Source: a virus (taxonomy: Duplodnaviria > Heunggongvirae > Uroviricota > Caudoviricetes). Taken from it: a stretch of 4,433 bases of DNA. Shown here piece after piece: positions 862-1,994 of the stretch. The stretch spans positions 1-4,433 of the IMG/VR virus record IMGVR_UViG_2541047441_000013. The stretch is one strand, 5' to 3'. Both the position numbers and the translations under genes were made by a program. The stretch's first letter is position 1. The number at the start of each line of letters is the position of its first letter. The notes beneath the pieces were generated by a model. It was not told the origin of the DNA. It saw nothing but the letters and a program-made list of their open reading frames with translations, and did not search any database.

Positions 862-917
862 GGATATATAGTGATGAGGGTTATGTTTTCTGTGTTTATA
901 ATTAACATGTTTATTTT

Positions 918-947
918 TTGATGGTCATGTATTGTGGAAGGTAGATA
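918..947 (+). promoter_or_regulatory. Candidate sigma70 promoter in the AT-rich Q-distal spacer (possible pR'-equivalent or moron promoter)
   Basis: TTGATG (918-923), 18-bp spacer, TAGATA (942-947). Hexamers identified by eye in very AT-rich DNA, so false-positive risk is high. Confidence 0.2.
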
Positions 948-972
948 AAATGTTGCCTGGTGAATTGAAAAT

Positions 973-985
973 ATTGATAATCAAT
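973..985. promoter_or_regulatory. Perfect 13-bp palindrome ATTGATAATCAAT, candidate operator 28 bp upstream of the CPBP gene start
   Basis: ATTGAT (973-978), A (979), ATCAAT (980-985) is exactly self-complementary. Surrounding 19-mer 970-988 matches the Fur-box consensus GATAATGATAATCATTATC at 14 of 19 positions (hand alignment; AT-rich context). Confidence 0.3.
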
Positions 986-1012
986 CTTCATCATTAAATA
1001 AAAGGAGTGCTT

Positions 1013-1831
1013 ATGTGGATTGTGTTAGTACTGTCACTGTCAACTCTCAGTTGGCATAAGGTAGTGGCTTTTTCATTGTTGACGGTGTCTGTTGTCCTGG
1101 CTGTGCTTAATGATATTATTGATTGGTCGGTGTTATTTTTTGTTGCTACAATCGTTTTTTTTATTATTTTGAAGTTCAACTGGAAATATAACGCCTGGGC
1201 TAAATCTATATATGAAGTTGGCATAGTTTTATCAGCCATAGCATTATTTTTCCATCTATGGCCAGGGTTTCACAATCCTGTAGTGCTAAATTCTGTTACT
1301 GTTGGCCCTCAAAGTACTCCCTATACAATGTATTTTAATTTTGATAAAGCGCTGGTGCCATTTTTGTTAGTCCTGTGTACATCTTCTTTGTTTAAAAAAG
1401 AAGTAAAATCAGAAGTGTCTTTGTGGAAGTGGGGGGCTCTGTCGCTCTCTGTTCCTCTTATCCTGTTTTTGGCTGTTTTTTTTGGTGGATTAAAGCCAGA
1501 GATTCATTTTCCTGAGTGGTTGCCAGAGTTTATATTGGCTAATTTGTTTTTTGTGTCTCTGGCAGAGGAATCATTATTTAGAGGGTATATTCAATCACGG
1601 CTATCAGAAGTAACGTCTCCATTGGTTGCATTAATTGTGGCGGCTTTGTTGTTTGGTTTTTATCACTATTCAGGTGGTGCTTTACTTGTATTATTTGCCA
1701 CGTTATCTGGTGTTGTGTATGGATTGTCATGGATGTGGAGTGGGCGTTTGTGGGTTGCCACCCTTTTCCATTTTGGTTTGAATCTGTGTCACTTGTTATT
1801 CTTTACCTATCCATTTTTAAAACATAATTGA
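1013..1831 (+). CDS. CPBP-family intramembrane metalloprotease (CAAX protease / Abi, Pfam PF02517-like), polytopic membrane protein, about 272 aa
   Basis: ORF track 1007-1831. Preferred start is ATG 1013 with SD AAGGAG (1002-1007) 5 nt upstream. Three CPBP signature motifs occur in canonical order and spacing: EExxxR = AEESLFR (1562-1582), FxxxH = FGFYH (1652-1666), HxxxN = HFGLN (1769-1783). Multiple long hydrophobic stretches. Coding strand is T-rich with rare codons (ATA Ile at 1208, 1223, 1238; AGA Arg at 1580). Confidence 0.8.
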   Translation: MWIVLVLSLSTLSWHKVVAFSLLTVSVVLAVLNDIIDWSVLFFVATIVFFIILKFNWKYNAWAKSIYEVGIVLSAIALFFHLWPGFHNPVVLNSVTVGPQSTPYTMYFNFDKALVPFLLVLCTSSLFKKEVKSEVSLWKWGALSLSVPLILFLAVFFGGLKPEIHFPEWLPEFILANLFFVSLAEESLFRGYIQSRLSEVTSPLVALIVAALLFGFYHYSGGALLVLFATLSGVVYGLSWMWSGRLWVATLFHFGLNLCHLLFFTYPFLKHN

Positions 1832-1884
1832 TTTTTTCTATGGTTTTAAATTTATAAGACTGAAAAATAGCAGGACGTGACATT

Positions 1885-1925
1885 TGCATGAAAAATATGC
1901 ACGGCAAAGCATTTACGTACGTAAA
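1885..1925. promoter_or_regulatory. Operator-like inverted repeats: TGCAT-N7-ATGCA (1885-1901) and perfect 14-bp palindrome TTTACGTACGTAAA (1912-1925)
   Basis: Both repeats read directly from the sequence. They lie in the 286-bp intergenic region between the CPBP gene and the 65-aa ORF, just upstream of a terminator hairpin. Possible promoter hexamers TTTACG (1912-1917) and TATGCT (1934-1939) with a 16-bp spacer. Confidence 0.3.
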
Positions 1926-1972
1926 AAATCAGGTATGCTGTTAAGAGTGGTTATTTCGCCGCATAGCTTGAC

Positions 1973-1994
1973 CCCGCCTCTGAGCGGGTTTTTT
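1973..1994 (+). terminator. Intrinsic terminator (tR'-like): CCCGC / GCGGG stem, 6-nt loop, T6
   Basis: Stem CCCGC (1973-1977) and GCGGG (1984-1988), loop CTCTGA, then TTTTTT (1989-1994). Confidence 0.5.

Follow-up and report, generated by a model that had tools for sequence, protein, structure and literature searches.

In lambda, the late promoter pR' directly follows the antiterminator gene Q, and transcription stops at the terminator tR' unless Q has modified RNA polymerase. Where, then, does pR' lie when another gene stands between Q and the first terminator? The question is raised by a 4,433-nt stretch of DNA from a Caudoviricetes virus (IMG/VR record IMGVR_UViG_2541047441_000013, positions 1 to 4,433; hereafter the window), in which the Q gene is followed by a gene for a CPBP/Rce1-like intramembrane protease. 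An initial annotation of this DNA proposed that pR' might lie in the AT-rich spacer directly after Q, so that the protease gene would occupy the slot held in lambda by 6S RNA; alternatively, pR' might lie in a palindrome-rich region at 1884-1940, the protease gene then having a promoter of its own. Sequence alone was thought to leave the choice undecided. Comparative data do decide it, for a pR' within 1912-1939. We consider it likely, on the strength of these comparisons, that the late promoter-terminator unit on which the Q of the window would act spans 1912-1994 and excludes the protease gene, which most likely lies outside the short '6S-like' late transcript.

The two observations from which the initial proposal set out hold in our analysis. 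A terminator scan returns 1973-1994 as the first strong intrinsic terminator on the + strand 3' of Q, the only earlier + strand match being a weak one inside the CPBP gene (1522-1539; three GC pairs, interrupted T run), and the protease gene (1013-1831) is the sole credible one in the interval from Q to it. Placing pR' in the spacer, with the protease gene in the 6S slot, is not supported by comparison with relatives: the spacer is specific to CPBP-carrying loci, its proposed hexamers are not conserved, and other relatives carry different cargo, or none.

Relatives were collected in two ways, as 80 IMG/VR loci chosen by Q similarity alone and as 80 loci chosen by a 16-mer of the unit alone. 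In the first survey, the unit is found downstream of Q in 73 of 80 loci, and the other seven end no more than 1.3 kb after Q. In the second, 16 of the 80 could not be scored (less than 2 kb of upstream sequence) and three were chance matches of the 16-mer in coding DNA; the remaining loci all have (61/61) an open reading frame (ORF) of PF06530 type upstream on the same strand, PF06530 being the family to which the Q of the window belongs (Pfam search, E 8.7e-52). The unit begins 2 to 3040 nt past the stop codon of Q, and the DNA between them falls into at least 25 unrelated clusters or is missing altogether. The first 150 nt past Q are not conserved between cargo classes; conservation starts exactly at window position 1912, where the palindrome of the unit begins, and we found no other conserved non-coding element common to the surveyed loci. 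For Qs of the Stx2_EH2201 type (named after a Shiga toxin (Stx) phage), the unit follows 26-37 nt after Q, which leaves no room for another promoter.

The unit has the anatomy of a promoter closely followed by a terminator. It opens with TTTACGTACGTAAA (1912-1925), a perfect 14-bp palindrome, which, together with TGCAT-N7-ATGCA at 1885-1901, bears out the earlier description of 1884-1940 as palindrome-rich. The left arm of the palindrome doubles as a fair -35 hexamer, TTTACG (1912-1917), and an A-tract and then a variable 5-6 nt separate the palindrome from a candidate -10. The sequence TAnnnT occupies the -10 register in 61 of 68 distinct units and its middle bases vary, which is the pattern expected of a -10. 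The comparison of loci supports the alternative in which pR' falls within 1884-1940 and the protease gene has its own promoter, and it narrows pR' to 1912-1939. Beyond the -10, the block at 1939-1972 is at least 90% conserved at each position across classes of Q that are only ~47-49% identical to the window Q, and it is kept even where the terminator is replaced; the 36 nt after the predicted start are almost invariant across all classes. The terminator keeps its position and stem in relatives, with variable loops. The predicted pR' RNA would comprise 49 nt (1946-1994), folding at -14.9 kcal/mol with a terminal hairpin.

What makes the palindrome a candidate Q-binding element is that it switches class together with the C-terminal helix of Q. 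Five such classes can be distinguished. The window has a short, QuuD-like Q with a helix of class A (CSDGxIGKRLQKAEG-type), and palindromes of this class read TTTACG(TA/AT)CGTAAA. Class B pairs GCGGTCCGC with a helix K[SD]EKxIRIExQxAEG, class C GCGTACGC with CSDGTIRKELQTAxG, class D GGAATTCC with SHTxxLKRLQxAEG, and class E TGTTATAACA with SLNQVVIRLQKAEG. Palindrome class and helix class agree in 148 of 148 classifiable loci, representing 73 distinct protein/DNA pairs, and the palindromes of all five classes share one centre, 20.5-21 nt before the near-invariant block. A mosaic Q of class E (locus L095) is almost the same as the window/QuuD type in its N-terminal half but differs in its C-terminal half, and it is with the latter that its palindrome, TGTTATAACA, goes. 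The residues specific to each class lie just past the segment that aligns with helix H5 of the phage 21 protein, Q21, which is, we infer, where a recognition helix would be expected. Each of these short palindromes is by itself not rare in shuffled sequence; the chance of four further classes each having a palindrome at the same centre is, by a rough estimate, of the order of 1e-10.

We would go one step further, tentatively and with chances that we judge a little short of even: short QuuD-like Qs may recognise a palindrome that overlaps the -35 of pR', with at least five interchangeable helix/palindrome pairs set on one near-invariant block, and the gap between Q and pR' may be a dedicated cargo slot for defence and surface-protein genes, the transcripts of which would all end at tR'. 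A symmetric Q site, if true, would imply a loading geometry unlike the tandem binding of Q21.

Several points weigh against this assignment of promoter, terminator and Q site. The candidate promoter TTTACG-16-TATGCT matches 8 of 12 consensus positions, which is below the threshold of the scan and is why the scan does not list it, and the -35 is poor in palindrome classes B and C. The seven of 68 units that are off register at the -10 form a single subclass (class B1, CAGTAT), with TATGTT 3 nt downstream. Since the terminator stem, CCCGC/GCGGG, is nearly invariant across the 68 distinct units and the loop alone varies, covariation lends it no support. No convincing -10-like pause element was found, there being no hexamer with A2 and T6 at +1 to +25 of the predicted transcript, and the supplements of transcriptome papers, searched for coordinates and for essD, yielded no start or 3' end for the homologous unit of E. 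coli K-12. Finally, the cargo clusters are each specific to one Q class; with none shared between classes, there is no shared-cargo control for the co-variation of Q and palindrome, and physical linkage of Q and unit may partly explain it.

A sigma-dependent pause element (SDPE) should fall within the block 1939-1972. TAAGAG (1942-1947) resembles the phage 21 SDPE, TAAGCT, and its distance from the candidate Q site is similar too; given the predicted start, however, it would occupy -4 to +2. Two other assignments in this region were considered and rejected. TAAGAG as an extended -10 is without the key T6, and the sequence upstream of 1912 offers no conserved candidate for its -35; the A-tract as -10, with TATGCT as pause element, likewise fails for want of the key T6 and of a conserved -35 upstream of 1912.

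The phage 21 cassette (OL657228; structures 6P18 and 6JNX) is instructive both for what it shares with the window and for what it does not. Its record annotates a -35, a Q-binding element (QBE) in the spacer, a -10, a start, a pause element, a terminator ~50 nt from the start, and tRNAs. Both Qs belong to PF06530, and the order of elements predicted for the window is that of phage 21: -35, Q site, -10, an RNA of ~50 nt, intrinsic terminator, tRNA genes, late genes. The match between the window Q and the Q21 structures is distant but significant (E 1e-7) and extends over ~80 residues only, the window Q being the shorter protein (123-126 aa versus 162). The Q21 site lies between the -35 and the -10 (PMC6606751; bioRxiv 10.1101/651190) and is a direct repeat (PMC6606751), namely of TGAGCA abutting the -10, whereas the window has, as its candidate site, a perfect palindrome that overlaps with the -35. 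In phage 21, 7 nt lie between the Q gene and the promoter; in the window, 1.05 kb separate Q from the candidate promoter. The pause element annotated in phage 21 has no clear counterpart in the window.

Other likenesses are found in E. coli K-12 and in Stx phages. The K-12 prophage DLP12 has a close Q homologue, quuD, and a near-identical unit with the same palindrome (TTTACGTACGTAAAAAATTGGTTATGCTGTTAAGAGTGGTTAC...), in the order quuD, nmpC, unit, essD-rrrD-rzpD. Its unit, at about 577,229 to 577,276 of MG1655, stands 120 nt before the holin gene essD, so that lysis genes follow directly, without the small helix-turn-helix (HTH) ORF, methylase and tRNAs of the window. Its cargo differs too, the porin gene nmpC, on the opposite strand and disrupted by IS5, taking the place of the CPBP protease gene. 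Phage phiP27 (Stx2e) and Stx2a phages of the Stx2_EH2201 type share the downstream order of the window (unit, small HTH ORF, methylase, tRNAs) but carry stx where the window carries small-RNA genes. In phiP27 a GIY-YIG gene fills the slot, followed by the same block as in the window; in Stx2_EH2201 the slot is empty, and only 37 nt separate Q from a block with homology to window 1939-2120. The Qs of these phages are ~47-49% identical to that of the window and their palindromes are GGAATTCC (phiP27) and GCGGTCCGC (EH2201). On this evidence the late-control cassette of the window reads as an ordinary lambdoid one, of the Q21/QuuD family, in which an accessory gene stands between Q and promoter, an arrangement already present in DLP12 and phiP27, though apparently not discussed there.

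An O157:H7 prophage (MB41-1; L003 1997-2780) indicates how such cassettes are exchanged. It encodes a distant Q relative, DUF1133, which also matches PF06530 (E 1.3e-8); its promoter region and hairpin are unrelated to those of the window, it has its own GCCACCGGAAGGTGG-T7 terminator, and homology resumes right after that terminator. Because homology resumes only there, Q, promoter region and terminator appear to swap as one module.

The predicted short RNA resembles lambda 6S RNA and StxS in that it would be a constitutive by-product of antitermination control. StxS, the short pR'-tR' transcript of lysogens, measures 258/74 nt (PMC7547250) as against ~49 nt here, and the predicted RNA has no sequence relation to lambda 6S RNA or StxS. 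It starts with a small hairpin, GUGGU...GCCGC, at 1947-1962; most relatives have GUGG...CCAC there, and the A-to-G change in the window, in a stretch that varies little, retains the pair as G-U. No Rfam family matches 1900-2000, even at E <= 1.

How do other explanations fare against these data? Imagine that pR' did lie in the spacer 862-1012, that Q acted there and that the protease were made constitutively in lysogens, with termination at 1994. Like pR' in lambda and phage 21, the spacer comes directly after Q, several promoter-like matches fall within it, and no terminator stands between the protease gene and 1973-1994. However, the spacer has no counterpart in loci that have the same Q family and other or no cargo, and nothing in it co-varies with Q; several CPBP-class relatives have lost or altered TTGATG and have a changed TAGATA; and the same slot of relatives holds cargo on the opposite strand (nmpC, a lipoprotein gene), which would make no sense within a pR'-tR' transcript. 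We give this explanation almost no credence. Less remote, though still improbable, is that the conserved unit just travels with the Q family, as a small-RNA gene in its own right or as a boundary terminator, the target of Q lying elsewhere, for example further downstream. The 36 transcribed nucleotides are indeed more conserved than a pause signal alone needs, they are kept where the terminator is replaced, and no pause element can be assigned in the unit; in addition, the '+1' of a published DLP12 reporter, inferred from the position of primer Pdlp12Fw and the stated -121, lies ~350 nt upstream of the unit. Against this, the unit is the last conserved element ahead of the lysis genes in K-12 and directly follows Q in EH2201-type phages, these loci have no other conserved non-coding element in common, and it is the promoter-proximal palindrome, placed as the Q21 site is, that varies along with the class of Q.

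A further possibility concerns the palindrome alone, which might be the operator of another regulator, such as the small HTH protein encoded at 2118-2315, rather than a Q site. A perfect palindrome is the usual target of a symmetric dimer, whereas Q21 binds a direct repeat, and the HTH ORF lies just downstream of the unit. Yet the palindrome is present in K-12 DLP12, where essD follows the unit and the HTH ORF is missing, and the O157 locus has the HTH ORF without the palindrome. Moreover, palindrome class follows the C-terminal half of Q even in the mosaic Q with its class A-like N-terminal half. We therefore rate this possibility as very unlikely.

If the unit at 1912-1994 is the target of Q, how would the protease gene be expressed? 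The pair proposed as pR' in the spacer, TTGATG (918-923) and TAGATA (942-947), does exist as strings 18 nt apart, but it is weak and goes unreturned by our consensus scan because TAGATA lacks the final T. Indels abound where TTGATG lies, several of nine distinct CPBP-class spacers are without it, and TAGATA is changed too. The scan returns three other promoter-like sites on the + strand in 922-994, a stretch of AT-rich DNA of a kind that often yields such matches (11 sites in the whole window versus 6.3 +/- 2.8 in shuffles). One candidate, TTGCC(T/A)-17-GATAAT, is conserved in hexamers and spacing in nine of the nine spacers, as are the Shine-Dalgarno sequence and ATG 1013; from its conservation, this promoter (953-981) probably drives the CPBP gene independently of Q. 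Since the terminator scan finds no terminator-like site in 1832-1911, the protease transcript most likely enters the pR' region and would, most probably, end at tR'. Two parts of the earlier proposal, a Q-independent promoter for the protease and a stop at 1973-1994, are thus both plausible, the latter on the basis that no other terminator lies between.

The protease likely starts at ATG 1013, behind AGGAG at 1003-1007, and its RefSeq relatives, of 819 nt, are annotated as CPBP family intramembrane glutamic endopeptidase. CPBP proteases are defined by the motifs EExxxR, FxxxH and HxxxN, all of which are intact in the translation (EESLFR, FGFYH, HFGLN). There is no PADLOC match for the protease, and a role in defence is only a guess. 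Morons of lambdoid phages, in the concept of Hendrix and Juhala, are accessory genes inserted between conserved phage genes. The CPBP gene is probably accessory cargo of this kind, between the Q gene and pR': it is present or absent at a fixed junction, the slot holding nothing in phages of the EH2201 type and, in other loci, one of at least 25 unrelated segments, it is low in G+C (GC) content, and it has a candidate promoter of its own. It differs from a moron in having no terminator of its own in 1832-1911 and appears to borrow tR'. Base composition as a marker of insertion was indecisive, as the cargo is matched in AT content by the 3' half of Q. In one E. coli prophage (HCP4S3_I4; L004 2311-3008), an IS1A lies between Q and the CPBP gene, and frameshifts in both the small HTH ORF and the CPBP gene point to decay of the region in that prophage.

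Elsewhere the slot holds a porin gene (minus strand), ORF6N, a lipoprotein gene (opposite strand), a gene for a small secreted protein, GIY-YIG in phiP27, CPBP, or low-GC cassettes, some of which match PADLOC candidate defence families. The slot may thus be a hotspot for defence genes. PADLOC matches in three loci (L185, L107 and L135) are, respectively, PDC-S20 (a KAP-type NTPase, E 2e-176), a HEC-04/OLD-like ATPase adjoining a C5 cytosine methyltransferase-like ORF, and PDC-M68A (HNH). In loci with ORF6N cargo (L055 4397-4531 and ~30 similar), a near-consensus promoter, TTGACC-17-TATATT, directly follows Q and is itself followed by a structured stretch of ~100 nt and a strong terminator. Other loci have partial copies of this element (74 nt, 75-80% identity) several kb upstream of Q; the window lacks the element.

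Put together, the cassette might work as follows. In the lysogen, the unit would make a short RNA alone, of ~49 nt, the counterpart of lambda 6S RNA, of the short transcript of phage 21 and of StxS. Upon its synthesis, Q would bind the palindrome and load onto RNA polymerase paused just past pR', and would then carry the polymerase through tR' into the small HTH ORF, the methylase, the tRNAs and the late genes. The protease, meanwhile, would be expressed from its own Q-independent promoter (953-981), borrowing tR' as its terminator. For the window, this gives the most probable location of the late promoter and makes the protease an accessory gene that would be expressed apart from Q, outside the antitermination switch. 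The wider interest lies in the toxin: stx2 of phiP27-like and EH2201-like Stx phages is under the control of the PF06530 Q family, and in a comparison of Q-to-stx regions several such phages were reported to be without the pR' site that is known from highly virulent strains (PMC6266700). With a precise promoter, Q site and terminator now proposed, the family offers testable targets for work on toxin and lysis-gene expression, and the variable slot between Q and pR' is a practical place to seek accessory and defence genes of prophages.

Table 1. Features of the window, with positions counted from its first nucleotide.
Feature	Position	Strand	Remarks
rusA	129-500		leftmost gene of the window
Q antiterminator gene	490-861	+	likely ATG 490 by comparison with RefSeq relatives; mechanical ORF 481-861 with GTG 481
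AT-rich spacer	862-1012		between Q and protease gene
Cargo segment	862-1911	+	variable slot from Q to late promoter; this segment only in CPBP-class loci; GC ~0.36
Candidate protease promoter TTGCCT-17-GATAAT	953-981	+	sigma-70 consensus scan; predicted start near 988
CPBP/Rce1-like intramembrane protease gene	1013-1831	+	272 aa; ORF 1007-1831; PF02517, E 1.4e-19
Intergenic region	1832-2117		286 nt, 3' of protease gene
Palindrome TTTACGTACGTAAA and A-tract	1912-1928	+	candidate Q-binding element; palindrome 1912-1925
Candidate -10 of pR', TATGCT	1934-1939	+	16-nt spacer from TTTACG; predicted start near A1946
Near-invariant block TGTTAAGAGTGGTTAyTTCGCCrCAyAGCTTrAm	1939-1972	+	putative initial transcribed region
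Intrinsic terminator tR'	1973-1994	+	CCCGCCTCTGAGCGGG and TTTTTT; 5-bp GC stem, 6-nt loop, T6
Small TrmB-like HTH ORF	2118-2315	+	first gene past tR'; weak Pfam match, E 0.0034
N6/N4 DNA methyltransferase gene	2495-3553	+	PF01555, E 2.4e-43; gene order as in phiP27 and Stx2 phages
Two tRNA genes, CAT (ileZ-like) and Arg-TCT	3594-3669, 3750-3826	+	ARAGORN, Rfam, annotation of relatives

The likely start of Q given in Table 1 agrees with a coding sequence of 372 nt in RefSeq relatives. Of the genes beyond tR', the small HTH ORF has annotated counterparts in phiP27 and in E. coli relatives and a hairpin and T run of its own (2302-2319, a terminator-like site in the scan), and the methyltransferase gene would belong to the downstream unit that depends on Q. 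Relatives have lysis genes after the promoter-terminator unit, as with essD in K-12 and holins in another locus (L005).

The DLP12 reporter has a stated range of -121 to +650. Its forward primer maps to position 4754 of the K-12 locus (L086), which puts the authors' +1 at about 4875, near GAACTA...TCAC next to the start of nmpC, a sequence that is sigma-E-like by eye only; the +1 reportedly comes from a paper on RpoE regulation. As it lies that far upstream of the K-12 unit, transcripts from it would need to pass the unit.

Two further observations concern the right end of the window. ARAGORN calls the tRNA at 3594-3669 tRNA-Met (CAT), and its homologue is annotated as tRNA-Ile (ileZ) in phiP27 and O157 genomes; it is presumably a lysidine-modified Ile tRNA. 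In Stx phages, stx lies directly 3' of the position matching the tRNA genes of the window. That position is occupied in the window by Rfam matches to the prophage small RNA STnc100 (3936-4144, + strand, 175 bits) and to the anti-sRNA (small RNA) AgvB (4146-4205, - strand, 56.6 bits, just at the gathering score), with AsxR a weaker match.

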